64,000 nucleotides of DNA, from contig JAUSMY010000056.1 of NCBI GenBank assembly GCA_030646035.1, positions 5,481 to 69,480 of the forward strand, written 5' to 3'. The DNA is from Thermodesulfovibrionia bacterium (lineage in GTDB: Bacteria > Nitrospirota > Thermodesulfovibrionia > UBA6902). The notes below the pieces were generated by a model that had not been told where the DNA came from, ran no database searches, and was given only the letters and a program-made list of their open reading frames with translations. This document shows positions 14,626 to 39,069 of the stretch, piece after piece. Position numbers and translations under genes: made by a program. Position 1 is the first letter of the stretch; each line of letters opens with the position of its first letter.

Positions 14626-14640
14626 TACACCATAACCTAA

Positions 14641-15933: not shown

Positions 15934-15951
15934 AGTAAGGAGGCCATTGCA

Positions 15952-16749: not shown

Positions 16750-16752
16750 ACC

Positions 16753-17766: not shown

Positions 17767-17789
17767 TAAACTCAGAAAAGATCGCTGAA

Positions 17790-17823
17790 AGGGGCGGGCG
17801 GTTTACCGCCTGCCCTTTTTTAT
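17790..17823 (+). terminator. Rho-independent terminator after the capsid gene
   Basis: GGGGCGGGCGG-tttac-CCGCCTGCCC stem followed by TTTTTTT. Confidence 0.7.
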
Positions 17824-17833
17824 TGAGGATTAA

Positions 17834-19187: not shown

Positions 19188-19226
19188 ATCATAGAAGAGA
19201 TATTCACATATTAACGGAGGAGCGAT

Positions 19227-22500: not shown

Positions 22501-23176
22501 CGACGACAAGGTAGTCGTTGTTGACGGCATCGTGGATGAGATTGTTACCGAGACAAATAAGATAGCAGCTATTAAGACCGAGACTGATAAGATCGCTGGA
22601 GTGAAGACTGATATAGCGACTCTTGATGACAAGGTTGGCACAATGGACAGTAAGGTTGAAACGATAGATGCGCTTGTTGATGCCATAAAAGCCAAGACTG
22701 ATAATCTGCCCGCTGATCCTGCAAGTGATACGAACGTCAATGCCAACGAGACGAAAATTGATGCAATCGCATCAGCTATATCTACCCTCGACGGGAAAGT
22801 TGTTACCCTTGTCAGCGGTGTGGCAAACAATTCCAGGACAGTAGTGGATAGTAAACCACAGGAGATTACACGGGGCGATGAAGTCCTGTTTACTATTTAT
22901 CTTAGTACATCGTGGAATTTGACAGGGAAAAAGGTGCACTTCATGGCGAAGGCTGACAAAGATGCTGCTGATTCTACCGCCATATTTAATGTGGTTTGTA
23001 CTGTCGGAGCTGCGTCCGGCGGGCTGATTCCTTGCACCTACACGCTTACTCCGGCACAGACTGCGATAAAAGGGAAATATTATGCCGAGGCTGAGGTGCG
23101 GAATACGGACGGATCATCACCTCAGACCGCGAAAGAGTTCCCGCTCATAATAAGAAATGACGTCAGAAAAGGATAA
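19529..23176 (+). CDS. Large virion protein with an N-terminal right-handed beta-helix (tailspike/depolymerase-like) and C-terminal tandem coiled-coil-like repeats. Possible fibre or neck appendage.
   Basis: The N-terminal 600 aa are Gly/Asn/Ser-rich with periodic hydrophobics typical of pectate-lyase-like beta-helices. Residues about 690-1090 consist of 96/86/96-aa near-identical repeats. Confidence 0.5.
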   Translation: MAITFPSTQRNILITGYSAVTPCTMADIYNADIAAVNGRQLYTGAASGSPFSISLGTQTFGLVTTQPWVADSHGVQLKITCTARAGATLALTGKNRSGETVTETGIDISSGSAITIKKYFTLDTNGIVFTGLSNGDTITIKQDRWGVVSKIQQTYPYCVNTKYWMCEGGIQIGDYSSTPGNFASTNELFFFPGNHGFAIGSNPAGSFVIGSLSNGLPSEGSVIVHDSNGQNSNAIGVGNDSGITGNITIYDTAIKHLNRSLAYGGCYVGNYGGTVILKGIHANGCVVQSGAYTIDDICIYRSSSGGIGGGNGSVISNARVHNSLSGYSMAGQGLSDFVTGVVLDGTHSTEYLLAYAGQSPTTARLNDCVHGDNKIKANGPSNIYRTTYVDILINDILGNPISGAACLIKDMDGNIVSYNLSISTNAITVLSSAIDIVASTSWLTFGFAVGDVIVQDAEFMLITAIGGTGNKTATVTRGYYPKYPAVYHYSRIIYKAGSALSNASGFVPQQIIPLKRYLQQQGGIEGAGLATTYKDHTIIISKQGYSTYQDVITFAENDLTGQDLEISLSVYPNINFYTQSNQNRIGGNIMDIKKNEADATKRRVPIVCVDAADFATPEPGEAGGQAQKSINKGVWTNTAGTLVLVDAASGSYYVEYTQAEVNGNDLDTIDTRYKSANTAYTYGPTVQIKAKGLSDVVADIAAVSGQVLNVEDKVDLIDNIVDSVKTETDKIAGVKAKTDNIPVSPATEGNVSAVGETVVAVGNAVVTIDGIVDAIKAKTDNLPDDPASDTNVNANEAKIDTAITNIAILDGKVVVVDGIVDTIVTETNKIAAIKTETDKIAGVQADIATLDDKVVTVDGEVGTIDALVDAIKAKTDNLPTDPASDTNVNANEAKIDTAITNLATLDGKVVIVDGIVDAIKTETDKIAGVKTDIATLDDKVVTVDSKVGTIDALVDAIKAKTDNLPVDPASDTNVNANEVKIDTAITNIATLDDKVVVVDGIVDEIVTETNKIAAIKTETDKIAGVKTDIATLDDKVGTMDSKVETIDALVDAIKAKTDNLPADPASDTNVNANETKIDAIASAISTLDGKVVTLVSGVANNSRTVVDSKPQEITRGDEVLFTIYLSTSWNLTGKKVHFMAKADKDAADSTAIFNVVCTVGAASGGLIPCTYTLTPAQTAIKGKYYAEAEVRNTDGSSPQTAKEFPLIIRNDVRKG
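21600..22800 (+). repeat. Intragenic tandem DNA repeats of 288/258/288 bp plus flanking degenerate units, above 90% identical, inside the 1215-aa gene
   Basis: Units start at 21842, 22130, 22388 and 22676 (VDAIKAKTDNLP.DPASDTNVNANE.KIDTAITN...). The 288-bp units carry an internal 30-bp duplication (TETNKIAAIK/TETDKIAGVK). The minus-strand 414-aa ORF here is a repeat artefact. Confidence 0.85.
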
Positions 23177-23187
23177 GGGAGGAGATT

Positions 23188-23367
23188 ATGATCAACGTAA
23201 CAGTCACAGACGCAGCGGATGGGACGATACACTCGAAGTATGGCCTGCTTAAAAAAGGCTCAGAGATCGAGATTGATGAAGCTGACTTTGGAGAGGAGAT
23301 ATTCAAAAAGAAGACAGTCGTCAACGAGAAACTCAAAACTGATAACTTGAAAGGGAAGGAGGAGTAG
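23188..23367 (+). CDS. Small hypothetical phage protein (59 aa)
   Basis: Strong RBS (GGGAGGAG) 6 nt before the ATG. It lies between the large repeat protein and the tail tube gene and is below the track cutoff. Confidence 0.3.
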   Translation: MINVTVTDAADGTIHSKYGLLKKGSEIEIDEADFGEEIFKKKTVVNEKLKTDNLKGKEE

Positions 23368-23370
23368 GTC

Positions 23371-24405
23371 ATGCCAAGTGTAAGCGGAAGAGAAGTTAGG
23401 GTAGCTTTAAAAAAAGCTGCGGTATGGGGTACTGCAGTAGCCTGTGGCGCCGGGGACGGGATACTGTGCCTGGCGGACAGCATGAAGAAGAAAATCAATA
23501 GCGAAGTCGACAACTCTCTGGGGTTAGCCTTTGCAGAGGATCGTGATCAGGGGAATATCGTTGTTGAGGGCGGATTGCCCGCATACTTGCGGTATGACTC
23601 GCACGACAGGCCCATAGCCCTTGCAATGGGGAGCACTCAGGCCCCGACACAGCAGGGCGCCACGGCAGCATACGTAAACAGTATTCTACTGGCTGACAAC
23701 ATTGACGGCCTCTTTGCGTCGCTGGCAATTAACAAGATCATCAATGTTGATGAATTTCCCTCTGACAAAATAGTGGGCTTCACTATTAAGGGCGTTTCCG
23801 GGCAGGTGGTGATGATCGAGTACATTAAAATCTGTAATGATAAGGTTGTGGCATCAATCGTAAACAACTTAACATCCTTTGCCAATGTTACATATCTGGA
23901 GAAGACAAACCGGGTACTCTTTGGCCAGGGCGTCTTCAGGATCAATGCTCAGGCCGGCGGAGCGCTTGCAGATGGAGATATAGTAACTCCGTCTGCGTTT
24001 GAGTTTACATTCAAACGTAACCTGAAAGGCGAGTATGTGGCAGGCTCTGCGAATAAGATAGATGAGCCGACAAATGAGGGAGTCCCGGAGATCAAGCTGA
24101 AGCTTACCTTCGCGAGATACACAGCCACAACCTATATCGCAGATCTCTTTGCGGATGTGAAGAAAAAGATGGATATCACCTTCACTGGCGCTGTGATCGA
24201 AGGTGCTTATAGCAGGCAGTTCAAGCTCCAGTTCCCGAACCTTGCATATTCTGATGCTGATGCGCCTACAAAAGAAGCCAAGCTTGATAACGTCGTTGAG
24301 TTTGACTGCCTGGCAACAACTGCTGCGCCTACAGGCATGGCCGGGATACTAAAACCGTTCCAGGTGAATCTGATCAACAAGAGGACAACGAGTCCGTTAG
24401 CGTAA
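23371..24405 (+). CDS. Major tail (tube) protein
   Basis: 344 aa located immediately upstream of the G/GT-type chaperone pair and the tape measure gene. RBS GGAAGGAGGAG. Confidence 0.5.
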   Translation: MPSVSGREVRVALKKAAVWGTAVACGAGDGILCLADSMKKKINSEVDNSLGLAFAEDRDQGNIVVEGGLPAYLRYDSHDRPIALAMGSTQAPTQQGATAAYVNSILLADNIDGLFASLAINKIINVDEFPSDKIVGFTIKGVSGQVVMIEYIKICNDKVVASIVNNLTSFANVTYLEKTNRVLFGQGVFRINAQAGGALADGDIVTPSAFEFTFKRNLKGEYVAGSANKIDEPTNEGVPEIKLKLTFARYTATTYIADLFADVKKKMDITFTGAVIEGAYSRQFKLQFPNLAYSDADAPTKEAKLDNVVEFDCLATTAAPTGMAGILKPFQVNLINKRTTSPLA

Positions 24406-24428
24406 AAAAAAACAGGAGGCAATAGATA

Positions 24429-24809
24429 ATGGCAAAAATCAATTTAACAGACGGTGATAAAAACAAATGGTTTCAGTATGACATTGACACTGAGGTGTGT
24501 TTAAGGTTGATGTCAAAGGCAGAATTGAGGGCTATAAATAAGCAGGCCAAGAAGAATTCTGGTCTTACAAGTGCGGATCAGGATGAAATAGCAGATAAAA
24601 AGCTTGGCAGAGAGGCAGTGATTGGCTGGCGCAAGATGGCAGATCATAATCATCCGGGATTTATTTTAAATGGTGAGCCTCTGTCGTTCACACCTATAAA
24701 CATTGATCTGTTGATGACAAAGAGTTTTAAGTTTTCTAAGTTTGTTAATGAGATGTGTGTTAGTGAAGATGAGTTTATCGAGGAGCCGATAAACCCAAAA
24801 AACGACTAA
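24429..24809 (+). CDS. Tail assembly chaperone (lambda G-like). Its 3' end carries an A_AAA_AAC -1 slippery site.
   Basis: Size and position before the tape measure. The heptamer A AAA AAC at 24797-24803 is in the zero frame, 1 codon before the stop. Confidence 0.55.
   Translation: MAKINLTDGDKNKWFQYDIDTEVCLRLMSKAELRAINKQAKKNSGLTSADQDEIADKKLGREAVIGWRKMADHNHPGFILNGEPLSFTPINIDLLMTKSFKFSKFVNEMCVSEDEFIEEPINPKND
24797..24803 (+). promoter_or_regulatory. Programmed -1 ribosomal frameshift slippery heptamer AAAAAAC
   Basis: X_XXY_YYZ in the zero frame of the upstream chaperone gene. A GC-rich repeat/hairpin (CCGGGCG...CCGGGCG) begins about 8 nt downstream. Confidence 0.55.
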
Positions 24810-24844
24810 TAGCTTACATCCGGGCGAAAGCGGACTTTCCGGGC

Positions 24845-25147
24845 GTGAGCTGTGAGATTTGTAAAGGGATATTACAGATAGATGAAGTCGAACCGCCGTG
24901 CTTTTGTGAGGTAGAAGAAGGTGAAATAGTTCCCGGTGTCAACGCCTGCTGGATACCGGAGCTTGACGAAAAGAGTAAAAGGATACTTGTGATCAGGCAA
25001 AAGATTACAGCACTTAAAGAACTTGTAGACTCGGGAACGATACTAAGGTTGTATGAGGCTGATTTAGAGGATATAGAGCTGTTGGCGTATCTGGAAGATG
25101 AACTGAGGCAGATGCAGGACGAAGCACCTAAACCAAAAGAGGGCTAA
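24845..25147 (+). CDS. Tail assembly chaperone frameshift extension (GT-like). Expected to be expressed as a 24429..24803/24803..25147 fusion.
   Basis: The ORF is in the -1 frame relative to 24429..24809. The -1 frame is open from the slippery site through to 25147. The annotated start is GTG with no independent SD. Confidence 0.5.
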   Translation: MSCEICKGILQIDEVEPPCFCEVEEGEIVPGVNACWIPELDEKSKRILVIRQKITALKELVDSGTILRLYEADLEDIELLAYLEDELRQMQDEAPKPKEG

Positions 25148-25148
25148 G

Positions 25149-27521
25149 ATGGCTGAAGTAAAAATATCTATAACCGCGGAAGACGGCACAAAGCAAGTCT
25201 TTAGCGCAGTCAGAGAAGGCGCAAAGACTGCATTTGATAGCGTCGAAAACTCCGCTGTTACCTCTACCGGTAAAATGAGTTCAGCATTTGATAGTTTAAA
25301 GTCGCATTGGCTTGAGGTTACGGCAGGTATTTACGCCGCATGGGAAACTGTATCAAAAGCAATTGAACTCATAAAACTCGGAGCCGGAGCCATGCAGTCT
25401 GAAGAATCATTCAAAAATGTCACCAAGGCTTATGGCGAGGACGCTGATGCGTTACTTGCCAAGATGGAAGAAGTTTCTATAGGAGCAATAGATAGCAGCG
25501 ATCTTATGCAACGTGTTGTAAAAGGTATGCAGCAGGGGTTGTCAAGCGACCAGATAGTTAAGCTGCTTGAAGTCTCCCGTTCCGCAGCCAGGGTGGCTGG
25601 GACAGATATTGCATCTGCGTTTGATGGAATTACAAATGCGGTTGCCAACCAGACCATGAGAGGATTGAAGCTGTATGGCATTATGGTCGATCAAAACAAG
25701 GCATTTGAAGATTATGCCGTTGTATTGCATAAATCAAAAGATGCGCTTACAGAACAAGAACAATCTCAGGCACTTGCAAACGCGGCAATCGCAGAAGGCG
25801 GGCGGCAAGCAAAGAATATGGGCGATATGACAATAAATGCTTCCGAGCAGATACAGATAGCAGAAGCGAAAATACACGAGCTAAAAGAGACTATTGGAAC
25901 GGAGCTGATAGAAGCGCTCGGAAAAGCTATTGAGCACACCGACTCTCTTACCGCCGCCTTGACCGTAGGTGCAATAGTTGCCGCAGTTCCGATGTTAGGT
26001 AAGATAGTAACAGCATTGAAGGCGGTAGAAATTGGAGCATTAAGCGCATCCCTGGCAGCGCGGGGTATCGGCGCAGGGATTGCTGCTGGAGTTGGCTATG
26101 AAGTGGGTAAATGGTTAGATGCAGATCTATATAAACGCCTCGGCATAGACCTCTCCGGTATGAACAGGCCGACTCAAGAGCTTACGGATGCGACCGAAGG
26201 GCTTGCCTGGGCACAAGAGGAACTGGCAAAGCGGCAAAAGAAGGTTTCAGCTGGGTTTAGTGAAAACAAAGATGCTATCAAAGCCGTAAAAGACGCAGCT
26301 GAAAAATACGCCGATGTGGTTAAAGATGTCAACGCCGACCTTCTTAAATTCGCAGGAGATGACTTCAAGAAGAACCTCAAGGATCAGGAGAAATCCACAG
26401 GCGGAATGGCTCAGGCGCTGCAAGGATATCTGAATGTGACAGATGCCGTCTATAACAAGCGGCTGCAGATGCTCTTTGTCCTTGGTCAGGAAACTGATGT
26501 GGAGTTACAAGGCACAGCGGTGCAAAAGGCTCAGGCAGAGGCACGGCTTGGAGCTTGGAGTCAGTATTATGAAACATTAAAGGGGCTGCATAACGCCGCA
26601 ATCGAGGCGCAGAAGACGAAGACTAAAGAACTTCTTGATCTTGAAACCCGCATTAAGGATCAGCGACAGGGATATGCAGATCTGACGCTTTCATTAAACC
26701 AGAAGTTGATGACCGAGACGCAGAAATACTACTCCACACAGGAGGATCTTGAGCTGAAGTATAAGTCAGCTCTGACTCTTACAGGGCAGGCAAAAATAGA
26801 CGCGCTGACAAAGTATCAGACAGCGATGGCGGCGACAGCCAACGCTGTAACGCAGGATGGACAGGAGAGAATATCTCTTGAGGAAGCAGTGGCAACTGCG
26901 CTGGAGAAAAATGCAACGGCTCAGGCAGAGATTTTAATGGCACAGGATGCTCTTAAGCTGGCGAAACAGGCAGAGATAGACCAGATTGGCGTGTGGAAGA
27001 CATCGCTTGAGACGGCAATGGCAAAGGCTACTGAGATGATGGAGTTGTATACAACTCAGATCACTGACTTGGGCACGATCATAGACGGCTTACAGATGAA
27101 TAAGACGCTGACGGTGGACACTGCCGGGGCAGTAATGCAGGTCAATAGCCTCAAGGGCGCGATTGCTTCGATACCTGATATCACATATAAACAAATAATT
27201 ATCACAACTGCCGGAGGAGCCTCTTCCGGCGACGGTTTCCAAAGCGATAGCTCAATGTCCGGGTTTCACCCGCAGCCTTTAGCCACAGGAACTCCGTATG
27301 TTAAAAAAGAAGGTCTGTTTTATCTCCATGTTGGCGAGGCGGTGACTCCTGCCAGTATGAATAATAATAACTCAAGAAAAACGACTATCAACTTCTCAGG
27401 CATGAATATCAATATAAACGGAGCCAACAAAGACGGCAAGCAGCTCGCGCGGGAGATTGATGAAGAGATGGCGGATATGGTTAAAAACGAGAGATCACGG
27501 CTGGCGAAGGCGCTTAAATAA
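25149..27521 (+). CDS. Tail tape measure protein
   Basis: 790 aa, alpha-helical and low-complexity (A/Q/E/K-rich). The position after the G/GT pair is canonical. Confidence 0.7.
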   Translation: MAEVKISITAEDGTKQVFSAVREGAKTAFDSVENSAVTSTGKMSSAFDSLKSHWLEVTAGIYAAWETVSKAIELIKLGAGAMQSEESFKNVTKAYGEDADALLAKMEEVSIGAIDSSDLMQRVVKGMQQGLSSDQIVKLLEVSRSAARVAGTDIASAFDGITNAVANQTMRGLKLYGIMVDQNKAFEDYAVVLHKSKDALTEQEQSQALANAAIAEGGRQAKNMGDMTINASEQIQIAEAKIHELKETIGTELIEALGKAIEHTDSLTAALTVGAIVAAVPMLGKIVTALKAVEIGALSASLAARGIGAGIAAGVGYEVGKWLDADLYKRLGIDLSGMNRPTQELTDATEGLAWAQEELAKRQKKVSAGFSENKDAIKAVKDAAEKYADVVKDVNADLLKFAGDDFKKNLKDQEKSTGGMAQALQGYLNVTDAVYNKRLQMLFVLGQETDVELQGTAVQKAQAEARLGAWSQYYETLKGLHNAAIEAQKTKTKELLDLETRIKDQRQGYADLTLSLNQKLMTETQKYYSTQEDLELKYKSALTLTGQAKIDALTKYQTAMAATANAVTQDGQERISLEEAVATALEKNATAQAEILMAQDALKLAKQAEIDQIGVWKTSLETAMAKATEMMELYTTQITDLGTIIDGLQMNKTLTVDTAGAVMQVNSLKGAIASIPDITYKQIIITTAGGASSGDGFQSDSSMSGFHPQPLATGTPYVKKEGLFYLHVGEAVTPASMNNNNSRKTTINFSGMNININGANKDGKQLAREIDEEMADMVKNERSRLAKALK

Positions 27522-28261
27522 TGGCAAAGGTCAAGGCGTGTTACATAAATATCCTTGAGACCAGCACTGTCACCCTCACATTAGGGACTGAAGATGTCGC
27601 GTTTCCTCTATACCGTCTCTATGACAGGGAGTGTTCTGACCTATTTAAGATCACCGCCGCTGCCACGTTTCAAATTAAGGTCAATCAGGGGGCTATTAAG
27701 GCGATCGACAGGCTCTTAATCCCTGCAGGGCATAACCTTTCAGGTTTGACGCTGACATTCTCATATTCAGACTATGATGCGGATGATTATAGTCAGGTGG
27801 AGCAATGGACTCAGAGCGGCAATGCCCTGATTGATATTCCACTTGATAGCTCGATGACTCATAAGTATTGGAAGCTTACTGTCGCATCCCCGTCAGCCAT
27901 TCCGCAGATACCTGAACTGTTCTTGACCTCAACTTATGAGTTCGAGCGCAATCCTTCCCGGCCATGCGATAAGGACAAGCGGTTTAACGTCGAAAGGCTT
28001 CAGGAGGCAGGCGGACAGCCGCGATATATTAAACACGGCGAGCCGAGGGCATATCGCCTCTATGCCTTACCGCGCATGACCGCAGCACAATCAACCAACA
28101 TACAGGTGCTCAATGACGCATGGGACGGCTGCAAGCCCTTCTTTCTCTGTGATCACAATGGCGTCTGGTTGTTTGGCGAATTACTATCCCCGATAGGACT
28201 GGCTGAAGAAAGCTCAGACAAAGATTCATGCACTCTTGAATTTCAAGAAATACCGGCATAA
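27521..28261 (+). CDS. Distal tail protein (Dit-like)
   Basis: 246 aa immediately after the tape measure gene with an ATGG overlap. The call is positional. Confidence 0.4.
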   Translation: MAKVKACYINILETSTVTLTLGTEDVAFPLYRLYDRECSDLFKITAAATFQIKVNQGAIKAIDRLLIPAGHNLSGLTLTFSYSDYDADDYSQVEQWTQSGNALIDIPLDSSMTHKYWKLTVASPSAIPQIPELFLTSTYEFERNPSRPCDKDKRFNVERLQEAGGQPRYIKHGEPRAYRLYALPRMTAAQSTNIQVLNDAWDGCKPFFLCDHNGVWLFGELLSPIGLAEESSDKDSCTLEFQEIPA

Positions 28262-30591
28262 TGAAGGCACTTACTGATGCGCAAAAACAGGCGATCGCAA
28301 ATGGCAAGCTCTATTCTGCCTATCTACTGGACATCACCCTGCAGGGCACAGGTGCGCCGACTCTCCACATATCAGACAGAACCATTACCGTCTCAGGTGT
28401 AACTTATCAGAATTATCTTAAGGACCTCTCCGGGCTGGGAGAAGAGATAGACCGTGCCAATTCTGAAGGCAGGAACGCGGACATCACGCTCGTATTCAAG
28501 AATAAACCGTACCTCACTTACAACTTCTTTATTCAGATAGGCAGCACATATCCGTTCGAGGGTGCGCTTATCACCATAAAAGAAATTCTTATTAATGATC
28601 TCAATGTCCCGGGAGAGCCGATAACGATCCATATGGGCGTCCTTGATGAGGCGCAGGATGTCGACACACTGAGCTTCACTTACCAAGCGTCATCGCTCTG
28701 GAAGTTGAAGGATGAGCAGTTCAAACAAGCTTTGATCACGGCTGCGGTTTACCCCGGAGCAGATCCTGATGATATTAATAAACCTGCAAATATTGGATAC
28801 GGCTCACTCCAGCAGGTGAAATGTCATGCTGTTGCCGCAGGGGCAGTGGATAATCTGACCGCCAATATAACAGCATCCAGCCCCGGCAATATCGGGACAC
28901 TTGTTCTGTCAGATGCCTCTAAATACCCTGCCAGCGGTGCCTTCACTATCCAGACAGAGAGCGAGCAGATACGTATTGCTTCCAGAAGCGGCAACACCCT
29001 GACTCTTGCCTCATCAGGCGCCAGGGGATACAACAGCACCACAGCGGCGGCACATGATAAAGGAATGGCTGTTTTTGAGGTTAAGACGGAGTATATCTAT
29101 CTAATAAAAAATCATCCTGTAAAGGCTATAGGCAATGTCTATGTTGATAAAATCAGGCAGTTGACCGGTTACACAGCTTACACCGGGCAGAGTGGGGATG
29201 AGCTTAGCGGTTATGAAGGAAAGGCGGTTATTAAATTCACAGTCAAGCCGGTTGTGCAAAAGCAGGTGAATTTGGGAGTAGATGTCACGAATCCTACTCA
29301 CGGTCATCAATTTAATGGAGCCTCACAAAATCAAAATGCCAGTACGTTGGTTTCTCCCGCGTATGGATGTTCCGATCTTGGCGGTTCATTGACCCAAAAC
29401 ATAACCTTTGTCAGCCTTGCTACTGCATATCAAGGGAACAGCGCCACTGTTGGATTTACCGTGTCTTATAACAACTGTGGAATCCCCGATTATTGTGAGG
29501 TAAAGATTGGCGGTATCACGGTTTTTAAAAGGGTGAATGGGTCTACTACAATTAATCTTGGCACAAGCGTAAGCTTGGAAATGGCGTATAGTGGAGGGTC
29601 AAAGGATTTGATTCCTGTGTACATCAACGAGAGTTCTGGGTATAACCCTAACCCACACACACAGAGTGGGATAAAATGCCAAATCAATTCAGCCAGTCGT
29701 GTTGCTATCTTTAATGATGCTTCATCTTCAACAGCACAAAATACATCTGCAAGTCTTACCGGTAATTCATCCGCCGACACTGTCATCGGCACGAGTGTTA
29801 ATGCCGACGTTGACTGCTGGAAAGACGACGCCTTCGGGACATACACCGGCACGGCAAACGCCCTGATTGAGCGGCCTGACCACGTCTTTAAGCACTTCCT
29901 CGACGTCTATTTTGGCTATGCGCTGACTGATATCGATACGGCAAGCTTTGCGGCAGCAGGGGCATTATATGCCTCAGCCATATCCGGCGGATATAAGTTC
30001 GCCTTTTGTATTAATAAAGAGATCCGCTCGGCAAAGCAGGAAATCCTTGAGAACCTGGCATCTCAGTGCCGTAGCACATTAGTCGAGGAAGGTGGCAAGT
30101 GGTACCTGGATTATATCCCTGATACTGCACCAACAGAGGACAAAACTATTAAGGCATCTGAGCTTGTCGGTGAATACGCAAAGTTCCTTTTCCATAAAAC
30201 AGCGCGAGTGGATATTGAGAACGACCTCACGGCCAAATTTGGGGAGAACTACGGGAAGCTGAGCTATGATGAGTCAGAATGGCAAGGCACAGCAACTGCC
30301 TCAGACTCTACCTCACAGGGTAAGTACGGAATAAAGCCCACAAACTATATCTTCAACGCTATCCGGTCGCAGGCCATGGCAGATCATGTCCTGGCATTTA
30401 AACTCTTGCAAAAGAAGAATCCTCTCTGGTTAATAGATGCGACACTCTTCTGGCAGCATTACGACCTCGAAAGAGGCGATACAATAGCGATTGAGAACAC
30501 CCTTAACAACGGCATGAACTTCTTTCTTGAATGGGTCGGAAGGTCCCGGAAGGGCTTTGTGGAAATCAAGGGGAAGGAGTGGGTAGGATGA
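28261..30591 (+). CDS. Tail tip/hub protein (Tal-like; possible receptor-binding protein)
   Basis: 776 aa after Dit and the last gene of the structural block. The call is positional. Confidence 0.45.
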   Translation: MKALTDAQKQAIANGKLYSAYLLDITLQGTGAPTLHISDRTITVSGVTYQNYLKDLSGLGEEIDRANSEGRNADITLVFKNKPYLTYNFFIQIGSTYPFEGALITIKEILINDLNVPGEPITIHMGVLDEAQDVDTLSFTYQASSLWKLKDEQFKQALITAAVYPGADPDDINKPANIGYGSLQQVKCHAVAAGAVDNLTANITASSPGNIGTLVLSDASKYPASGAFTIQTESEQIRIASRSGNTLTLASSGARGYNSTTAAAHDKGMAVFEVKTEYIYLIKNHPVKAIGNVYVDKIRQLTGYTAYTGQSGDELSGYEGKAVIKFTVKPVVQKQVNLGVDVTNPTHGHQFNGASQNQNASTLVSPAYGCSDLGGSLTQNITFVSLATAYQGNSATVGFTVSYNNCGIPDYCEVKIGGITVFKRVNGSTTINLGTSVSLEMAYSGGSKDLIPVYINESSGYNPNPHTQSGIKCQINSASRVAIFNDASSSTAQNTSASLTGNSSADTVIGTSVNADVDCWKDDAFGTYTGTANALIERPDHVFKHFLDVYFGYALTDIDTASFAAAGALYASAISGGYKFAFCINKEIRSAKQEILENLASQCRSTLVEEGGKWYLDYIPDTAPTEDKTIKASELVGEYAKFLFHKTARVDIENDLTAKFGENYGKLSYDESEWQGTATASDSTSQGKYGIKPTNYIFNAIRSQAMADHVLAFKLLQKKNPLWLIDATLFWQHYDLERGDTIAIENTLNNGMNFFLEWVGRSRKGFVEIKGKEWVG

Positions 30592-30704
30592 TTGTGGACA
30601 TGTGATTAAGAACGCAGACTCAGCTAATTTCTTTCAATGTTTGCGTTATCACATCCTTTTAAATAATGATTGACAAGTCCTTAATAAAATAATAGAGTTA
30701 ATAA

Positions 30705-31037
30705 GTGGATATTGAAAAGAGGTTACATCCAAGAATAAATGTCGACATCAGATGTGAAATTATCTTTAAGGATAAAATCTATGACAGTCTTATTCATAAT
30801 GTGTCCATGGGAGGGTTATATATTGAATCAACCCCTGATCTCATCGGATACCCGGCAGGTCTTTCTTCAAATGATAATATTCAAGTAACATGTGTGCTCC
30901 CTTCAGGAGATAACATAATGCTTAAATGTCAGATAAAGTGGATTCTCATTCATGATAAACAACTGAATATCGGAGTGGAACTTATTGAGTCACCTTCTGC
31001 TTTTTTTGATTTCGTAAAAGAAATGGAATTAACTTAA
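30705..31037 (+). CDS. Stand-alone PilZ-domain c-di-GMP binding protein
   Basis: It carries the RxxxR motif (RLHPR) and the D/NxSxxG motif (NVSMGG). A TTGACA-17-TAGAGT promoter-like sequence lies about 30 nt upstream. GC is low, about 35%. Confidence 0.7.
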   Translation: MDIEKRLHPRINVDIRCEIIFKDKIYDSLIHNVSMGGLYIESTPDLIGYPAGLSSNDNIQVTCVLPSGDNIMLKCQIKWILIHDKQLNIGVELIESPSAFFDFVKEMELT

Positions 31038-31163
31038 AAGCTTGACAACTCCCCTATTACCACGGTTTTCTTAAATGAGTGTCTAGTATTATCTCATGAT
31101 TAATTTTGTAACGCATTATTGTAACCTATTGAATAGAGTAGCAACTTATAGTATATTTGTATA

Positions 31164-31493
31164 GTGGAAAGAAGGTGTTCAGAAAGAAAAGATGTTAAGA
31201 TCGATGTTAAGATCAGCTTATCCGGTAAAAGTTATGCCGGATTCATAGATAATATTTCTCCGGAAGGATTAGGTGCAACCATAGTAACAGCCCCTGAAGA
31301 AGATGTAAGCGGTTTTGTTAAAGGGACAAAACTTGAGCTGTCATTTCAAGCCAAAAGAGAAGAAATAACCCTGCAGTGTGAGATCAAATGGATAAATATA
31401 TCTTCAGAGATACATGTTGGCGTTATATACATTATAGGAGCTGAAATTATAGACCCGCCTGCTGAGTACAAAGAACTCATAAGAACTTTATAA
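31164..31493 (+). CDS. Second stand-alone PilZ-domain protein (GTG start)
   Basis: It carries RRCSER (RxxxR) and DNISPEG (DxSxxG). It is paralogous to the upstream PilZ protein. Confidence 0.65.
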   Translation: MERRCSERKDVKIDVKISLSGKSYAGFIDNISPEGLGATIVTAPEEDVSGFVKGTKLELSFQAKREEITLQCEIKWINISSEIHVGVIYIIGAEIIDPPAEYKELIRTL

Positions 31494-31499
31494 ATTGCA

Positions 31500-32777
31500 A
31501 TGCAACGAAGAACTACAGTTAATCTAGGGAATTTGGCCCTCTCTCTTTCTGATGCCATGGATTTGGCAAGCCCTTCATTTGTTCAACATCAACAAAGAAC
31601 AGCCTTCGTTGTATGGGAACTGGGGAAAGTTGCAAATTTCTCAGATGAAACATTGGAAAATAATTTTATTGCGGCACTTCTTCATGATGTCGGTGCATTG
31701 ACATTAGAAGAAAGAATATCCATACATACCTCTAAAGTCGAAAATCTTGAGTTGCATTGCATCCGAGGAGAATTTTTACTCGCTCAATCACCTTTACTAA
31801 ATAAGGCATCAAAAATAATTCGATTTCACCACAAGCCATGGAAAAATTGGGACGTAACTATTGATCCCGCTTTTGCTTTAGAGGCACAGATGTTGTCTGT
31901 GGCTGATTACCTTGAGCACTTGATCGATCGCAATAAATATATTTTGCATCAGCATGAGAATATTATTTCAAATATTAGATCTCTTTCGGGTTCCTCATTT
32001 CACCCACAAGTCATAGATTATTTTCTCACGGCATCCGAGCGAGAGGAATTCTGGCTGGATCTGGTTTCCCCAAGATTATATTCTCTTTTACTTAATGAAG
32101 GGCCTTTAAGAAAGATAGAAATAGGCCTTTCCAAAATAGTTGTTATATCCGAGTTATTTCGGAATATTATTGATTTTCGGTCTCATTTTACCGCAACCCA
32201 TTCTTCCGGAGTTGCAGCAGCAGCTTCAATAATATCCAGGATATTTGGCCTCACTGAAACGGAAATTAACCTCATGGAGGTTGCCGGCAACTTGCATGAT
32301 CTGGGGAAATTAGCCATACCCAGTAGTATCCTGGAAAAGCCCGGGAAGCTTACAAAAGAAGAAATGTCTATTGTGAAATCACATCCATACTATACTTATT
32401 CCGTGATTAACACTATCGGAGGCCTTCAGCAGATGGCTGAATGGGCAGCTTATCATCATGAAAGACTCGATGGTTCAGGTTATCCATTTCATTGTAAATC
32501 AGATGACCTAAGTACCGGAGCGAGGATTCTATCAGTAGCAGACATATTCACGGCGTTAGCTGAGGATCGGCCTTATAGAAAAAGAATGTCCCCAAAAGAG
32601 ATTGTAGAGATAATTAAGCAATCTTCAGACCAGCAACTTCTGGATAAGAAGATCTGTAATCTTCTTTTTGATAATTTCGATGAAATTTCTTCCTATGTTA
32701 TTGATAAGCAGGCTGTTGCCAAGGATTTCTATGAACAGCAATTTGCCTTTATCGATCAAAACTCAGACGGATTTTAA
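31500..32777 (+). CDS. HD-GYP domain c-di-GMP phosphodiesterase (N-terminal degenerate HD domain plus C-terminal canonical HD-GYP)
   Basis: The C-terminal half has HDLGKLAIP and HHERLDGSGYP. The N-terminal half has LLHDVGAL / RFHHKPW without a GYP motif. Confidence 0.8.
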   Translation: MQRRTTVNLGNLALSLSDAMDLASPSFVQHQQRTAFVVWELGKVANFSDETLENNFIAALLHDVGALTLEERISIHTSKVENLELHCIRGEFLLAQSPLLNKASKIIRFHHKPWKNWDVTIDPAFALEAQMLSVADYLEHLIDRNKYILHQHENIISNIRSLSGSSFHPQVIDYFLTASEREEFWLDLVSPRLYSLLLNEGPLRKIEIGLSKIVVISELFRNIIDFRSHFTATHSSGVAAAASIISRIFGLTETEINLMEVAGNLHDLGKLAIPSSILEKPGKLTKEEMSIVKSHPYYTYSVINTIGGLQQMAEWAAYHHERLDGSGYPFHCKSDDLSTGARILSVADIFTALAEDRPYRKRMSPKEIVEIIKQSSDQQLLDKKICNLLFDNFDEISSYVIDKQAVAKDFYEQQFAFIDQNSDGF

Positions 32778-32819
32778 GTTATTACGTATCTTCTATATAT
32801 TTGTTATAATTTTGAGCAG

Positions 32820-33059
32820 ATGATTAATGGAAAAGCAGAAAATAAGTTGTCTGAAGAGTCTTGTATTCGATTTGGCTCTATAGCAATTGCCAAAAGATAT
32901 ATTACTATTGACCAATTACTAAAAGCGTTAAATGAGCAAGTAATTAATGACGTTATAAATAAGCAGCATAAACTTATTGGAGAAATTCTGTTAAAGAATG
33001 GTTGGATGACAGAGAAGCAAATTGAATTGGTTTTATGTGAACTTCGTAAAAAAGATTGA
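32820..33059 (+). CDS. Small protein with two MshEN/T2SSE_N-like 24-residue motifs. Putative c-di-GMP receptor.
   Basis: RFGSIAIAKRYITIDQLLKALNEQ and LIGEILLKNGWMTEKQIELVLCEL resemble the tandem RLGxxLVxxG(I/F)(L/V)xxxxLxxxLxxQ motifs. The spacer between them is 11 aa rather than 5, and the first R is replaced in motif 2. Confidence 0.4.
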   Translation: MINGKAENKLSEESCIRFGSIAIAKRYITIDQLLKALNEQVINDVINKQHKLIGEILLKNGWMTEKQIELVLCELRKKD

Positions 33060-33105: not shown

Positions 33106-33435
33106 TTATCCCTTACTTGCTTTCCAGTCTTTCAATAACCTGAGTATAGTGTGTTTTGCTTCCGGAAGGTCATTTTTTAATATTCGTGATATCAATGCAA
33201 GCTCAGGATCATCTTTCTGTGAGGCACTATTATCACCGACAAGCAGCCAGCCGGGATCGCATTGCAGGGTTTCAGACATCTTCGATAGCAGCTCAGCGCT
33301 TGGGATCCTGTGACCGCGCTCATATTTATTTAAAGTTGGATATGCAACCCCTATCGCCTTTGCCAGCTTATCTTGAGTAAGTCCGGCCTTTTTACGAGCG
33401 ATTTTGATTCGCTGTCCTAATGGGTTATTGATCAA
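33106..33435 (-). CDS. XRE-family helix-turn-helix transcriptional regulator
   Basis: LGQRIKIARKKAGLTQDKLAKAIGVAYPTLNKYERG is a classic HTH_3 motif. Confidence 0.6.
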   Translation of the reverse strand: MINNPLGQRIKIARKKAGLTQDKLAKAIGVAYPTLNKYERGHRIPSAELLSKMSETLQCDPGWLLVGDNSASQKDDPELALISRILKNDLPEAKHTILRLLKDWKASKG

Positions 33436-33566
33436 ATTCTCTCACTTTTTTTTATGAACCTCTCCATCGTGCTCTTCTCATGCCTTAATTTTAAGACATT
33501 TTAGAAGGCATATTATTTTAACTATATAGAAATCCTTACCGCCGGTTGAGGAGTCGGCTGACCAGG

Positions 33567-34058
33567 TTAATATTGCATTGGGAATACGGAATGATTATGA
33601 TCCCACCAAAGTATATAAAGAATTTCAGCTTGTCGTATACCCCACAAGCGTTCCCTTGCAGCAAATCTTAAAGAATATAATTCATCCAGATCATCTAAGT
33701 TTAGTTCTTTTAATCTATCCCTGGCATCTTTACATATTTTACTTACTGGCATGAAATGGTTTTGAGGAGAACCTTTACTGATTCGCTTAGTTGCGATTTC
33801 TCCCCATGTCATTGTCTCAAAACTTTTTAGTCTATTTTGTATTGTTTTGAAAGCATCCGCACTATTTAAATTTCCCCAGCCCCATTGCCCTTCAAAATCT
33901 ATCATACCCATTCGCCATACAGGCCTTTTTTGGTTTATTGACTCTGGTGAATGAGCGTAATCAATAGTTGGAGTTTTTTTACCGGAAGGAGTTTCTACTC
34001 TGTTGGGGGTTTTTGCTGTTGATGGCTGTATTTGCCACTTGGGCCTCTTGTTACTCAA
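33567..34058 (-). CDS. Unrecognised 163-aa protein downstream of, and overlapping, the Panacea-domain gene. Candidate toxin partner.
   Basis: A 4-nt overlap (ATGA) with the upstream DUF4065 gene implies co-translation. No known motif was recognised. It is Trp-rich (GQWGWGNL, LYILWWDHNH). Confidence 0.3.
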   Translation of the reverse strand: MSNKRPKWQIQPSTAKTPNRVETPSGKKTPTIDYAHSPESINQKRPVWRMGMIDFEGQWGWGNLNSADAFKTIQNRLKSFETMTWGEIATKRISKGSPQNHFMPVSKICKDARDRLKELNLDDLDELYSLRFAARERLWGIRQAEILYILWWDHNHSVFPMQY

Positions 34059-34486
34059 AGCCCGCTATAATACTCCATCATGCTTGCATGAGTAATAGTT
34101 CTGTTCCCGCGCATATTTGGAGCCACGCCAGTGCGTGCATCTTTCCAAGGATCTTCTTTATGTGTGAGCTCTGAAAGCCACTGTGAGGTTTTGTCACCAT
34201 AATAGTTTAAGACACCATTAATTGTTGCTCTTTGTTTTTTAGAAAGGCGAGAGGGATCCCCGACTCTTAATGAAGATATATTAAAATAACCTTTATGTTT
34301 ATCATAAAGTTCTCTTACTACAGGACCATTAGCCCACGCTTCAATCTCTTCATTAAAAATAGGCGCTTCATCCCATACGAGTGACCACGCTTGGCAATAA
34401 TAAACAAGCTTTTGAAGCTTCATGGTAGTCATTACCCCATGTTTGTTTAATATGTATGCTGCTATATCATAAACCGAAACAGACAT
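34055..34486 (-). CDS. Panacea-domain (DUF4065; SocA/GepA-like) protein. Putative antitoxin.
   Basis: The N-terminal MKLQKLVYYCQAWSLVW matches the highly conserved DUF4065 core. Confidence 0.6.
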   Translation of the reverse strand: MSVSVYDIAAYILNKHGVMTTMKLQKLVYYCQAWSLVWDEAPIFNEEIEAWANGPVVRELYDKHKGYFNISSLRVGDPSRLSKKQRATINGVLNYYGDKTSQWLSELTHKEDPWKDARTGVAPNMRGNRTITHASMMEYYSGL

Positions 34487-34596
34487 CGCCTTCTCCTTTT
34501 TTCTTATGATTCAATTATAGCAGTTTTTGTTAATAAATTATCAAGATTAATAGGCATATTGTAATATTTTATAACCAATCATCAGGCCCTTACTGT

Positions 34597-34818
34597 TTAT
34601 TTCTTCTTTGTTCCATAAGGTGATTGATTTGTAGGTTTTAAGGAGATTTTCTCTTCACTGGCTTTTGTCTGCACGGCACCGGGTGTGCGGCCTATCTTAA
34701 GACCAATGACTCTTGTAGGGGTGTTTTCTTTGGCTAGTTGTTTCAGTTGTTTAACGTCTGTTTCTGTCCATGCCTTGCCATTATTACGGGTTGATTTGCT
34801 CATTGCTTTTCCCTCCAT
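34597..34818 (-). CDS. Hypothetical small basic protein
   Basis: ORF with coding-like composition next to the repressor. No motif recognised. Confidence 0.25.
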   Translation of the reverse strand: MEGKAMSKSTRNNGKAWTETDVKQLKQLAKENTPTRVIGLKIGRTPGAVQTKASEEKISLKPTNQSPYGTKKK

Positions 34819-34970
34819 ATTTAAAGGATTGACATATCAAAGCACATCTTATTCACTCTTCCAATATACTTGCCAATATAGTTAATTTCTTAATCATTCG
34901 TGATAATTCGGTTGAGAGTAGGCGGTATTTGCAATTATAACAACCCTTTTTAAAATGATCGTATTGAAGC

Positions 34971-35360
34971 CTAAGCTGATTTGGATCTTCTTTCCTTCTT
35001 TTTTTGAGGAAGGGGAGTACTTTTACTTTTGCCGCCTCCTTCGTCGGTTATGATTTCAACAAATTTCTCGATCTTATCAGCATCCTCAGGATGCTTTTGA
35101 AGGTGCTTCTCTATCTTTGCGGCAATCTTCCAGACACTATCTTTTACGTTTGTATCATATTCTTTGGCGCCGTATCTTAACCAGGCAGGGTGTACATCAA
35201 AATACTCAGCCAGTTTTGCTGCATTCTCATCCCGTGGTTGAGTACGGCCATTTACCCAGCTTCTAATTGTTGATTCAGGCTTCCCCAAATCTTTTGCTAA
35301 TTTATATTGAGATATTCCTTTATTTTTAATGAGATTCTTTAATCTGGCAGGAAATGACAT
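34971..35360 (-). CDS. Phage cI-like repressor (XRE HTH)
   Basis: LIKNKGISQYKLAKDLGKPESTIRSWVNGRTQP HTH motif. It is divergent from the rightward early promoter. Confidence 0.6.
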   Translation of the reverse strand: MSFPARLKNLIKNKGISQYKLAKDLGKPESTIRSWVNGRTQPRDENAAKLAEYFDVHPAWLRYGAKEYDTNVKDSVWKIAAKIEKHLQKHPEDADKIEKFVEIITDEGGGKSKSTPLPQKKKERRSKSA

Positions 35361-37549: not shown

Positions 37550-37921
37550 ATGAGCAATAACATATCACAGATAATCAACCGGTTTGAAGGGTTACTTCAA
37601 GAGCTTCATGAGGTGGAAGACCCTCAGAACGCAGCAGACCGTCAGGTTGAGAAGCTTACCAAGACCGTCACTGATCCTCGCGTCCTTGCCTCTATGAAAT
37701 GGCTTACGATGAAAGAGGCGATCATATACAGCCGCAAGTCCAAAAACACCCTCCTAAAGTATATAATGAAAAATCTTATATACGGTGATCAGGTGGAGGG
37801 TGGCGACTGGATTGTTGACCGTGAGAGTATTGACAGGTTTTATAATACCCGTAATGCCGACCGGAATGCCCAAAAGCTGATCTATCTCCACCATGGCACC
37901 GACCAAAGGAGGACAGGATGA
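37550..37921 (+). CDS. xis: Excisionase/DNA-binding protein (MerR-like HTH_17)
   Basis: WLTMKEAIIYSRKSKNTLLKYI is an HTH of the excisionase family. It lies immediately upstream of, and overlapping, the integrase. Confidence 0.5.
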   Translation: MSNNISQIINRFEGLLQELHEVEDPQNAADRQVEKLTKTVTDPRVLASMKWLTMKEAIIYSRKSKNTLLKYIMKNLIYGDQVEGGDWIVDRESIDRFYNTRNADRNAQKLIYLHHGTDQRRTG

Positions 37922-39069
37922 ATCTTTTTAAGAGGGAAAACGGTGTATGGTATATCCGCAATTCCAGAGTAGAGCGAAGGCTGCTCGGGCTTCCCCAGGC
38001 GATATCTTTGAAGACAGAGGATGAATCATTAGCCAGGGCGAAGTTCCAGCAGCTGCAGGACCAGAGGAGAGACAGGCAGGTCAAAAGCATAGAGAAGGTC
38101 AATCAGATCAAACTCACGGAATACATTCCTGAGTATCTCGCCTCTCGTGAACTTCAGGGGATATCTCAGTCGACGATCAGTATTGACGCTAACGCCCTTA
38201 AGAAGTTCAAAGAAACTATCGGTGATATGACGCTCAGGGCGATTAAGAGAGAACAGGTCGATCGCTTCAAACTCATTTCATTAAGGATAAATTATTCAAA
38301 GACCTATATTAATATCATGCTCCGCAGCCTGAGCGCTGCATTCACGCATGCGCTCACATTGGAGAAGCCTTATATCTCAGTAAACCCATTTTCAAAGAGA
38401 GACAGAAATGACAAGGTCCTTTTTAAGATGGATGAAGAGATTCCACGTTACCTGCAACCTGCGGAGTTGGACAGGCTCTTTGAAGCGCTTGATAAGGAAA
38501 TAGTGCTCTTCAGCGACAAAGACGGATTCTGGCATATTAAGACCGGCCTTAAGCAAAAGCCTCTGCTTACAAGAGACCTGCAGAAGGCTGAGGCAACACT
38601 TGCAGAGGACAAAAGACGCCGTAAGGATCTGGTAGCAGCCGTCTATATTTATCTGTATACAGGTATGAGGCGCTCTGAGCTGATCAAGCTCAACCGGCAG
38701 GATGTAGACCTTGTGCACGGTCTTATTTATGTCAGGCAGACAAAAGGAAACAGAGATAGAGCTATTCCCATATGCGACAAGGTGAGGCCTTACCTTGAGC
38801 GCATTCACCCTGGCATAGGCCCGCTCTTCCCGAACTGGAGCTCACCGAATACACTCTCAAGGCTTTTTAGAAACATCGCATTGCAGGCGGGCGTTAAAGC
38901 CACACTTCACAGTCTTAGACACACATTCGCAAGTTATCTGGTCATGAAAGGGGAGGGTATTAAGAGTATAAAAGACCTGCTCGGACACCGGAACCTGAGG
39001 ACCACGGAGATCTACGCAAAACTCGACTCCGCGGCATTGTTGAAGACTGTTAATAAGCTGGATTTTTAG
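37918..39069 (+). CDS. int: Tyrosine recombinase / phage integrase
   Basis: The C-terminal catalytic signature is LHSLRHTFASYLVMKG...LLGHRNLRTTEIYAKL (R...HxxR...Y). The N-terminal SAM-like domain is present. Confidence 0.85.
   Translation: MNLFKRENGVWYIRNSRVERRLLGLPQAISLKTEDESLARAKFQQLQDQRRDRQVKSIEKVNQIKLTEYIPEYLASRELQGISQSTISIDANALKKFKETIGDMTLRAIKREQVDRFKLISLRINYSKTYINIMLRSLSAAFTHALTLEKPYISVNPFSKRDRNDKVLFKMDEEIPRYLQPAELDRLFEALDKEIVLFSDKDGFWHIKTGLKQKPLLTRDLQKAEATLAEDKRRRKDLVAAVYIYLYTGMRRSELIKLNRQDVDLVHGLIYVRQTKGNRDRAIPICDKVRPYLERIHPGIGPLFPNWSSPNTLSRLFRNIALQAGVKATLHSLRHTFASYLVMKGEGIKSIKDLLGHRNLRTTEIYAKLDSAALLKTVNKLDF

Follow-up and report, generated by a model that had tools for sequence, protein, structure and literature searches.

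Here we report a cluster of four genes, predicted to encode one degrading enzyme and three receptor-type proteins of cyclic di-GMP (c-di-GMP) signaling, inside a temperate tailed prophage of an uncultured bacterium of the Thermodesulfovibrionia. The cluster, hereafter called the cassette, lies in a stretch of 64,000 nucleotides (positions 5,481 to 69,480 of the 335,986-bp contig JAUSMY010000056.1, assembly GCA_030646035.1), which is referred to below as the window and in which all positions are counted from the first letter. It consists of four consecutive plus-strand open reading frames (ORFs) at 30705-33059, found where a preliminary description of this DNA had placed them, between the last tail gene (28261-30591) and a group of minus-strand regulators; the ORFs coincide with the NCBI gene calls MDO8282705-708 of this metagenome-assembled genome (MAG). 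In gene order they encode two single-domain PilZ proteins, a tandem-HD protein of the HD-GYP type, and a 79-aa protein related to the N-terminal domain of MshE. On balance, we lean toward the reading that the cassette is a horizontally acquired, AT-rich moron in the slot past the last tail gene, which would lower or rewire the c-di-GMP signaling of the host. On one strand, the cassette clusters an enzyme with three single-domain proteins of c-di-GMP receptor families, and its position and composition are typical of phage cargo; intact motifs, phage genes on both sides, variable cargo in the same slot of a relative, and the recurrence of HD-GYP genes on unrelated viral contigs support this reading. 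The preliminary description had spoken of a complete c-di-GMP effector and turnover module; this is overstated, because no diguanylate cyclase is present and one of the two binding motifs of the 79-aa protein is non-canonical. Of the two outcomes that would have refuted that description, proteins without a match to curated models of the predicted families and a cassette outside the prophage, neither was obtained.

Predicted functions of the four cassette proteins

Both PilZ proteins score above the Pfam PilZ (PF07238) cutoff of 22.5 bits (Table 1), and the motifs reported for them earlier are indeed canonical. PilZ1 carries KRLHPR (RLHPR at residues 6-10, with R6 and R10) and NVSMGG (residues 32-37), PilZ2 carries RRCSER (R4-CSE-R8) and NISPEG (residues 30-35), and the spacing between the RxxxR and NxSxxG elements is normal in both. 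The two proteins are 28% identical to each other. Their translated sequences thus support the assignment of both as predicted c-di-GMP receptors.

The 425-aa protein matches Pfam HD_5 (PF13487, cutoff 27.2 bits) in two stretches, the best of which, at residues 219-384, covers profile positions 2-169 of 170. Its C-terminal HD-GYP domain contains H234, H266 and D267, K270, H295, the sequence HHERLDGSGYP at residues 319-329, which is the intact HHExxDGxGYP motif that had been noticed before, and D348, as well as HDLGK. The N-terminal HD domain is devoid of a GYP motif and contains H62 and D63, H86, H110 and H111, and D136. All these residues of both domains are invariant in a 25-member family alignment. 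The protein retains all family-invariant columns of that alignment and, bearing all the sequence features of an active HD-GYP phosphodiesterase, is apparently catalytically competent. Its nearest solved structures are V-cGAP3 (VCA0931, 5z7c) and PmGH (4mcw), against which the entire C-terminal HD-GYP domain can be aligned, every HD, H, HH, D, and GYP residue being shared; the identity is only about 30-35%, and the cassette enzyme belongs to a tightly conserved family of its own. As in the cassette enzyme, a second HD-type domain precedes the HD-GYP domain in V-cGAP3, where the N-terminal domain has KD in the place of the HD dyad (LLHD) kept by the cassette enzyme. The sequence E-T-Q-N-H of PmGH is aligned to F-T-A-T-H in the cassette enzyme, so that the acidic ligand of the trinuclear-iron (PmGH-type) site, four residues ahead of the first His, is absent and replaced by F230; V-cGAP3 has a Tyr there, and both proteins are therefore non-acidic at this position. 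The Glu of PmGH is presumably E185, the extra metal ligand of the trinuclear-iron subclass (numbering of Bellini et al. 2014), and from its replacement by F230 we suspect a binuclear metal site in the cassette enzyme.

The likeness to V-cGAP3, a tandem HD-GYP phosphodiesterase of 3'3'-cyclic GMP-AMP (3'3'-cGAMP) with the same two-domain layout, raises an alternative in which the cassette serves counter-defense: the enzyme would degrade cyclic-dinucleotide immune signals, such as the 3'3'-cGAMP of cyclic-oligonucleotide-based antiphage signaling systems (CBASS) or of Hypr-GGDEF enzymes, and the small binders would act as sponges, together working against abortive infection. Pairs of nucleases and sponges with which phages counter cyclic-nucleotide defense are known (Acb1, Acb2, Tad1, Tad2), and the three binders of the cassette, having no output domains, are sponge-like. 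We nevertheless consider this explanation very unlikely. The PilZ and MshEN motifs are specific for c-di-GMP, and both PilZ proteins are canonical in them; the enzyme is an ordinary member of a chromosomal family found in 477 species genomes by a pattern scan and is absent from IMG/VR at the family level. PADLOC assigned no defense system to the cassette proteins, giving only generic HD and helix-turn-helix (HTH) matches, none of the four proteins matched a PHROG family, and no anti-defense match was obtained from either resource. The cassette is also situated in the moron and lysogeny region, not among the early genes.

The 79-aa protein had been described as carrying two MshEN-like motifs, and its translation contains the stretches RFGSIAIAKRYITIDQLLKALNEQ and KLIGEILLKNGWMTEKQIELVL. 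The relationship to MshEN was borne out by a match to the NCBIfam model NF053729 (c-di-GMP-binding domain, MshE-related; 47.7 bits at a cutoff of 38), by the first motif, and by the fold; the expected match to PF05157 was not obtained (no Pfam match at E<=1, this family included), and the second motif did not have the canonical form. The first motif, R17-F-G-S-I-A-I-A-K-R-Y-I-T-I-D-Q-L-L-K-A-L-N-E-Q40, agrees with the 24-residue consensus RLGxx(L/V/I)(L/V/I)xxG(L/V/I)(L/V/I)xxxxLxxxLxxQ, its sole deviation being an Arg in place of motif Gly10, which also occurs in several family members. In the second motif, (R/K)-L-I-G, a Leu occupies the canonical Arg position and the basic residue lies one position earlier, as an Arg in most of the family and as Lys51 in the cassette protein, and the terminal Gln is missing; these departures are common to the whole MshEN-like family. 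An exhaustive HMMER search yielded 456 representatives of this family, most of them 70-90 aa long or, as tandem proteins, about 140 aa, and the family profile matches the N-domains of PilF, PilB, and MshE in the PDB with E values from 2e-7 to 1.5e-4. The AlphaFold (AF2) model of the 79-aa protein, with a predicted local distance difference test (pLDDT) score of 82.9, has four helices, and its top seven Foldseek matches in the PDB are all c-di-GMP-bound MshE or PilF (root-mean-square deviation 0.8-2.0 A over 57-61 columns, probability 0.80-0.99). With the MshEN domains of the ATPases MshE, PilB, and PilF (5htl, 8pdk) the protein thus shares the four-helix fold and the first 24-residue motif (RxGxxhhxxxhhxxxxLxxxLxxQ). 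It differs from them in standing alone, in its non-canonical second motif, and in a longer spacer between the motifs (by 6 residues relative to MshE and by 4 relative to PilB). It stops past helix 4, with neither the C-terminal alpha/beta subdomain nor a fusion to a T2SSE-type ATPase, and this stand-alone form of the N-subdomain is common to about 450 database representatives. Profile matches and the structural model support the prediction of a stand-alone MshEN N-subdomain, the second half-site of which is putative.

Location, layout, and composition of the cassette

The cassette is within a prophage, as the preliminary description had proposed; this is a temperate tailed prophage of about 31 kb (about 8.0-39.1 kb of the window) integrated beside a tRNA-Gln gene (Table 1). 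Packaging, head, tail, lysis, repressor, and integrase genes form one block beside the tRNA gene. To the left of the cassette this block encodes, besides the proteins listed in the table, a head decoration protein, a head-tail adaptor, a tail chaperone, and tail proteins; to the right lie the repressors, the Panacea gene, four small plus-strand ORFs, the excisionase-like gene, and the integrase gene. The cassette is thus about 22 kb from the left end of the prophage and 6 kb from the integrase end, with phage genes on both sides. Housekeeping genes start only beyond the tRNA-Gln gene (an epimerase gene, purN, purM, rnc, fabF, and fabG), and leftward of about 7.6 kb, in DNA with 33% GC, there are MBOAT/AlgX-like, nuclease, and radical-SAM genes.

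Table 1. Features of the cassette and of the surrounding prophage (positions in the window; assignments of function are predictions)
Feature	Position	Strand	Remarks
Packaging, head, lysis, and tail block	8028..30591	+	GC 0.459
Portal	10771-12963	+	in structural block
Endolysin	13911-14387	+	in structural block
Major head protein	16753-17766	+	in structural block
Tape-measure-like protein	25149-27521	+	in structural block
Last tail protein, 776 aa	28261-30591	+	in structural block
Promoter-like site TTGACA-17-TAGAGT	30670..30698	+	ends 6 nt before the PilZ1 GTG; best match of the region, 10/12; suggestive only
PilZ1, 110 aa, single-domain PilZ	30705..31037	+	PF07238 41.5 bits; MDO8282705.1; GC3 0.297
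Promoter-like site TTGAAT-17-TATATT	31129..31157	+	ends 6 nt before the PilZ2 GTG; 9/12; not above chance
PilZ2, 109 aa, single-domain PilZ	31164..31493	+	PF07238 38.4 bits
Tandem-HD phosphodiesterase (predicted), 425 aa	31500..32777	+	HD_5 152.5 bits; starts 6 bp past the PilZ2 stop
Stand-alone MshEN-like four-helix protein, 79 aa	32820..33059	+	c-di-GMP-binding N-subdomain only (predicted); NF053729, AF2 model
Minus-strand regulatory/accessory block	33106..35360	-	GC3 0.29-0.41
HTH protein	33106-33435	-	repressor-type
163-aa ORF	33567-34058	-	phrog_8366; downstream of the Panacea gene
Panacea (SocA-like) antitoxin	34055-34486	-	PF13274 74.7 bits; phrog_1281
73-aa regulator-like protein	34597-34818	-	regulatory block
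cI-like HTH protein	34971-35360	-	regulatory block
Excisionase-like gene	37550-37921	+	right end of prophage
Tyrosine integrase	37918-39069	+	PF00589 93 bits; phrog_66 for the xis/int stretch 37550..39069
tRNA-Gln(CTG)	39203-39276	-	just outside the integrase end

The first ORF of the cassette begins 113 bp past the stop codon of the 776-aa tail protein, the spacers between the four ORFs are 126, 6, and 42 bp long, and the last ORF is convergent with the minus-strand HTH gene. The GC content is 0.365 over 30705-33059 and 0.362 over 30650-33059, with single genes ranging from 0.30 to 0.39, compared with 0.459 in the structural block of the phage, 0.454 in the early/xis/int block, 0.426 in the host DNA on the right, and 0.330 in the DNA on the left. 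The same shift appears at third codon positions (GC3), with values of 0.24-0.34 for the cassette genes, 0.45-0.63 for the phage core, and 0.43-0.51 for the right host flank. A low GC content of the cassette, put earlier at about 35%, therefore stands, but the surrounding phage is at about 46% GC rather than the 50% that had been given for it. The low-GC block starts exactly at the end of the tail gene and runs through the repressor region to about 35.4 kb, so that the cassette may have come together with the immunity module of a lower-GC phage.

The genes of PilZ1 and PilZ2 both begin with a GTG placed exactly 6 nt past a -10-like hexamer and lack a visible Shine-Dalgarno sequence (30670-30704 and 31129-31163), which hints that both PilZ transcripts would be leaderless. 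An origin of the cassette from a transposon or a miniature inverted-repeat transposable element was considered and found unsupported, no meaningful inverted or direct repeats having been found on its flanks.

Morons are known from phages such as lambda (bor, lom) and those of the HK97 type. The cassette resembles them in its position past the tail genes, its deviating composition, its upstream promoter-like sites, and the different cargo found in the slot of a relative. In one related viral contig, the gene for a tail protein with a full-length identity of 47% is followed directly by a Dam-like methyltransferase gene, at which the contig ends, and therefore this position appears to hold variable cargo. 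The cassette differs from known morons by its content, a second-messenger phosphodiesterase with three receptor-type proteins; a terminator was not detected, and its expression in the lysogen is only inferred.

The start of the low-GC block exactly at the end of the tail gene also fits a different arrangement, in which a separate integrative element (30.6-39.1 kb) sits in tandem with a structural phage remnant and the cassette is not phage cargo at all. The lack of detected attachment (att) repeats for the whole 31-kb unit and of recognized replication genes in 35.4-37.9 kb would agree with such an element. We regard it as extremely unlikely, because the left block has no integrase of its own and the right block no structural genes, while together they make one complete temperate phage, endolysin included; in addition, the right block consists of phage-typical families, and the GC content of the early/xis/int genes returns to the value of the structural block. 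An att site near 30.6 kb, which would have put the cassette outside the prophage, was looked for: no repeat, tRNA fragment, or att mark was present at 30.55-30.72 kb, and no repeats flank the cassette.

Several further features of the prophage and its surroundings were recorded. Beside the integrase gene, at about 39125-39170 on the minus strand, a 45-nt stretch resembles, as read by eye, a tRNA-Glu(CUC) of which only the 5' half is present: acceptor stem, D-arm, and anticodon stem and loop can be followed until, at the anticodon loop, the likeness gives way to phage DNA. The stretch was called by neither ARAGORN nor Rfam, by the latter not even when isolated, and its 3' half is absent from the window. 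The prophage may have a rearranged left end or may be incapable of excision. The Panacea antitoxin gene and the 163-aa ORF overlap by 4 bp, both within the low-GC block, and resemble a toxin-antitoxin pair of the PanA type, in which the ORF would be a candidate new toxin and the pair a second cargo. In the structural block, a 1215-aa ORF (19529-23176) contains two tandem repeats of 258 nt (86 aa) with 89% identity at 22025-22538; it weakly matches an SbcC-like coiled-coil PHROG and may encode a length-variable tail or fiber protein. On the host side, 7 kb from the prophage, the region 45994-52635 encodes a HAMP histidine kinase and a sigma-54 response regulator (PilS/PilR-like), followed on the opposite strand by two large membrane proteins that resemble O-antigen ligases (Wzy_C / Wzy_C_2), and may be a locus of surface glycosylation or pilin modification. 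No host type IV pilus ATPase was found near the prophage in 39-64 kb.

Relatives on viral contigs and in chromosomes

Homologous cassettes in other phage genomes, a search for which had been proposed earlier, were not found as a four-gene set. In INPHARED, a megablast search with 25 kb gave no match and tblastn with the three small proteins gave no relatives; matches to the enzyme had at most 41% identity with partial coverage and were confined to unverified fecal scaffolds and one record named as a Microcystis phage. The HD-GYP gene of this record (MaAM05, MW495066.1, 30697-39119 of 274 kb) is annotated as a cGAMP phosphodiesterase and adjoins tRNA-Trp, secE, nusG, rplK, coaD, and trxB. We dropped it as a phage precedent since the neighbors secE, nusG, and rplK look bacterial. 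Family-level scans of IMG/VR were negative for each query used: the HD-GYP protein and the alignment of its family, PilZ1, the alignment of PilZ2, and, from the phage, integrase and portal.

A degenerate DNA pattern for HHExxDGxGYP, in contrast, found HD-GYP genes on at least 120 IMG/VR contigs, and therefore such genes are not in themselves unheard of on viral contigs. Among the matches listed, no MshEN-like ORF was seen near an HD-GYP gene, and the only pairing with a stand-alone PilZ protein, confirmed by Pfam (29.1 bits), occurs on IMGVR_UViG_3300040781_000188 (L142, 61 kb), where a REC-HD-GYP gene at 1403-2464 is followed 2.1 kb downstream on the same strand by a PilZ gene at 4565-4873; this contig is crowded with small ORFs of no known family. 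A second contig, IMGVR_UViG_3300027985_001908 (L164), encodes at 7219-8490 a 423-aa HD-GYP protein with the tandem-HD layout of the cassette enzyme (423-425 aa) and 30% identity to it, on the opposite strand between genes for a gpA-type large terminase and a lambda-family portal. Both are cases of viral HD-GYP cargo like the cassette, but they belong to unrelated phages with distant proteins, and neither has an MshEN-like gene, a second PilZ gene, or a tight four-gene cluster. Uniqueness therefore holds for the four-gene set and not for HD-GYP genes on phages in general, which narrows the earlier claim that a cassette of this type is undescribed.

In the literature searched, no description was found of a phage cassette uniting a phosphodiesterase with receptors. 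A 2023 review lists few c-di-GMP elements on phages, namely a GGDEF-only protein on YuA and a riboswitch on PhiCD119, and virome work lists yhjH and mucR as single genes of viral contigs. Together with the diguanylate cyclases of SXT/R391 integrative and conjugative elements and the GGDEF/EAL genes of plasmids, these are the mobile c-di-GMP genes with which the cassette can be compared (PMC10333796, PMC11295528). Like the cassette, they presumably reprogram the surface behavior of the host, so that the cassette would belong to a kind of mobile-element cargo that is already known to tamper with c-di-GMP signaling; they are, however, single enzymes, mostly cyclases or EAL phosphodiesterases, whereas the cassette unites an HD-GYP enzyme with three stand-alone receptors in a tailed prophage.

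The chromosomal family of the enzyme is large. A word-indexed search gave 7863 matches, the best 120 of which are 65-75% identical to the cassette enzyme, and from the pattern scan 80 loci with 51-75% identity in the best segment were kept (L005-L084), labeled as Nitrospirota, Syntrophales, Desulfobacterales, Geobacter, Kuenenia, Acidobacteriota, Cloacimonadota, Poribacteria, Fibrobacterota, and others. The chromosomal family member, a tandem-HD protein of about 420 aa, is usually a lone gene in changing neighborhoods; some members adjoin GGDEF, HDOD, or REC-PilZ genes, and for some, as in L003, L014, and L080, an integrase gene is about 2.5 kb away. The HD-GYP gene is on average poorer in GC than its flanks (mean difference -0.039): among 72 loci, it falls below them by more than 0.03 in 40 and lies above them in 4; the extreme case is Geobacter argillaceus (L032), with 0.41 in the gene against 0.62 in the flanks, and in another locus (L035) the gene is also up to 21 points lower. 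The low GC relative to the flanks, together with the high identity across phyla, suggests that this family often moves horizontally.

Among 84 chromosomal loci examined, PilZ genes were found within 5 kb of the HD-GYP gene in two, an MshEN-like ORF directly downstream of it in one, and the full four-gene set or phage structural genes beside it in none, and hence the reading of the cassette as an ordinary chromosomal operon was rejected. The single MshEN-like neighbor, in a Desulfatiglandales MAG (L049:10001-11551), is a 68-aa ORF located 75 bp past the HD-GYP gene on the same strand and 36% identical to its cassette counterpart, an arrangement that hints at a functional link between the two families. 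For PilZ2, only two relatives were detected, the closer of which is 65% identical and encoded by a lone chromosomal gene adjoining an RND pump; a scan of JGI metagenomes with the PilZ2 alignment added one relative, 34% identical, on a 1.2-kb contig. Because this closer relative stands alone, and the HD-GYP gene usually does too, the cassette looks as if it had been put together piece by piece and not taken over as a ready operon, although a donor operon may exist in genomes not yet sampled.

These distributions bear on whether the cassette is only a passive hitch-hiker, that is, a recent neutral capture from a lower-GC bacterium or phage by illegitimate recombination or module exchange, which would have no role in the phage and persist only through the youth or defectiveness of the prophage. 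The set is a singleton that was not met in any further phage or contig searched; for each component, relatives occur in chromosomes in settings unlike that of the cassette; and the missing att repeats, with the unconfirmed tRNA-Glu-like fragment that has no partner, could mean that the prophage is decaying. All four ORFs are intact, however, and every diagnostic motif and family-invariant column is retained. Although the four genes fit together in function, none of the 84 chromosomal loci has them in synteny, which makes a single random capture of four c-di-GMP genes unlikely; pickup of the specialized-transduction type is excluded because the cassette lies 6 kb inside the int/att end. HD-GYP genes, moreover, recur in unrelated viral contigs, once inside a structural module. 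A neutral capture thus seems rather unlikely to us, though not negligible.

Proposed role of the cassette in host c-di-GMP signaling

If the cassette does act as a moron on host signaling, it would be expressed in the lysogen, with transcription starting at promoter-like sites of the cassette itself, reading through out of the tail operon, or both. The HD-GYP gene would have been captured from the widespread, horizontally mobile chromosomal family, and its product would hydrolyze c-di-GMP, probably locally; PilZ2 and the enzyme are likely to be co-translated, since their genes are only 6 bp apart. The three binders without output domains would either buffer the messenger or dock on host machines controlled by c-di-GMP, for which type IV pilus ATPases, the motility apparatus, and exopolysaccharide synthases are candidate targets. 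The net effect would be to drive the lysogen toward low c-di-GMP, with less matrix, fewer pili, and more dispersal, and low c-di-GMP would also strip the cell of the c-di-GMP-dependent surface receptors that competing phages use. There are precedents for phage receptors that depend on c-di-GMP (PMC8669472) and, in phage VP882, for c-di-GMP-dependent lysogenic conversion or control of lysogeny (PMC11315295).

Several observations weigh against this proposal. The four-gene set was found nowhere else in INPHARED, IMG/VR, the JGI metagenome scan, or the 84 chromosomal loci, and it could therefore be a recent, unselected capture; the evidence comes from one contig of one MAG, and at 90% identity each of the prophage proteins tested stands as a singleton. 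The boundaries of the prophage are imperfectly marked: a comparison of the int/tRNA end with the rest of the 64-kb window found no direct att repeats, giving only chance-level 9-13-mers and none longer than 13 nt, and the left end is set only by the shift in GC content and the first phage gene. Composition alone cannot single out the four genes, because the low-GC block also spans the repressor region. Promoter-like sites in the cassette region are no more numerous than in shuffled sequences, and no terminator-like site flanks the cassette. At the protein level, the second motif of the 79-aa protein reads K-L-I-G in the alignments, with Leu52 at the Arg position of MshE and PilB, and the enzyme may have a substrate other than c-di-GMP, because its nearest solved relative is a 3'3'-cGAMP phosphodiesterase.

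The cassette might instead work inward, as a sensor of the phage, with receptors and enzyme reporting the c-di-GMP state of the host to the adjacent repressor/antirepressor circuit and so tuning the lysis-lysogeny decision or induction. It does converge on the HTH gene at 33106-33435 and adjoin the immunity region. None of the four proteins, however, has a DNA-binding domain by Pfam, no c-di-GMP riboswitch was found in the window, and a sensor would not obviously need a phosphodiesterase of its own, all of which makes such a device improbable. A bolder proposal would have a self-contained, phage-owned c-di-GMP circuit, in which the phosphodiesterase and its private receptors read the biofilm or planktonic state of the host and turn it into a phage decision, either on induction or lysogeny through the repressor module or on the shutdown of c-di-GMP-dependent pili or glycans as superinfection exclusion, with phages spreading the HD-GYP family between phyla; we put it forward tentatively and consider it quite unlikely as a whole.

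Should the role in host signaling proposed here be true, a prophage with a degrading enzyme and three receptor-type proteins would mean that phages can import a whole signaling branch instead of a single enzyme, a conclusion limited for now to one uncultured MAG and a full set that does not recur. In most bacteria, c-di-GMP controls the switch between the motile and the biofilm state, and phages depend on this switch through c-di-GMP-dependent pili and glycans as receptors, through the matrix as a barrier to spread, and through the bias that the messenger pool can put on lysogeny. The at least 120 viral contigs with HD-GYP genes suggest an under-described class of phage auxiliary genes, and with the prophage described here, one highly conserved HD-GYP family would have a concrete vector by which it could have spread, as it apparently did, horizontally across phyla.

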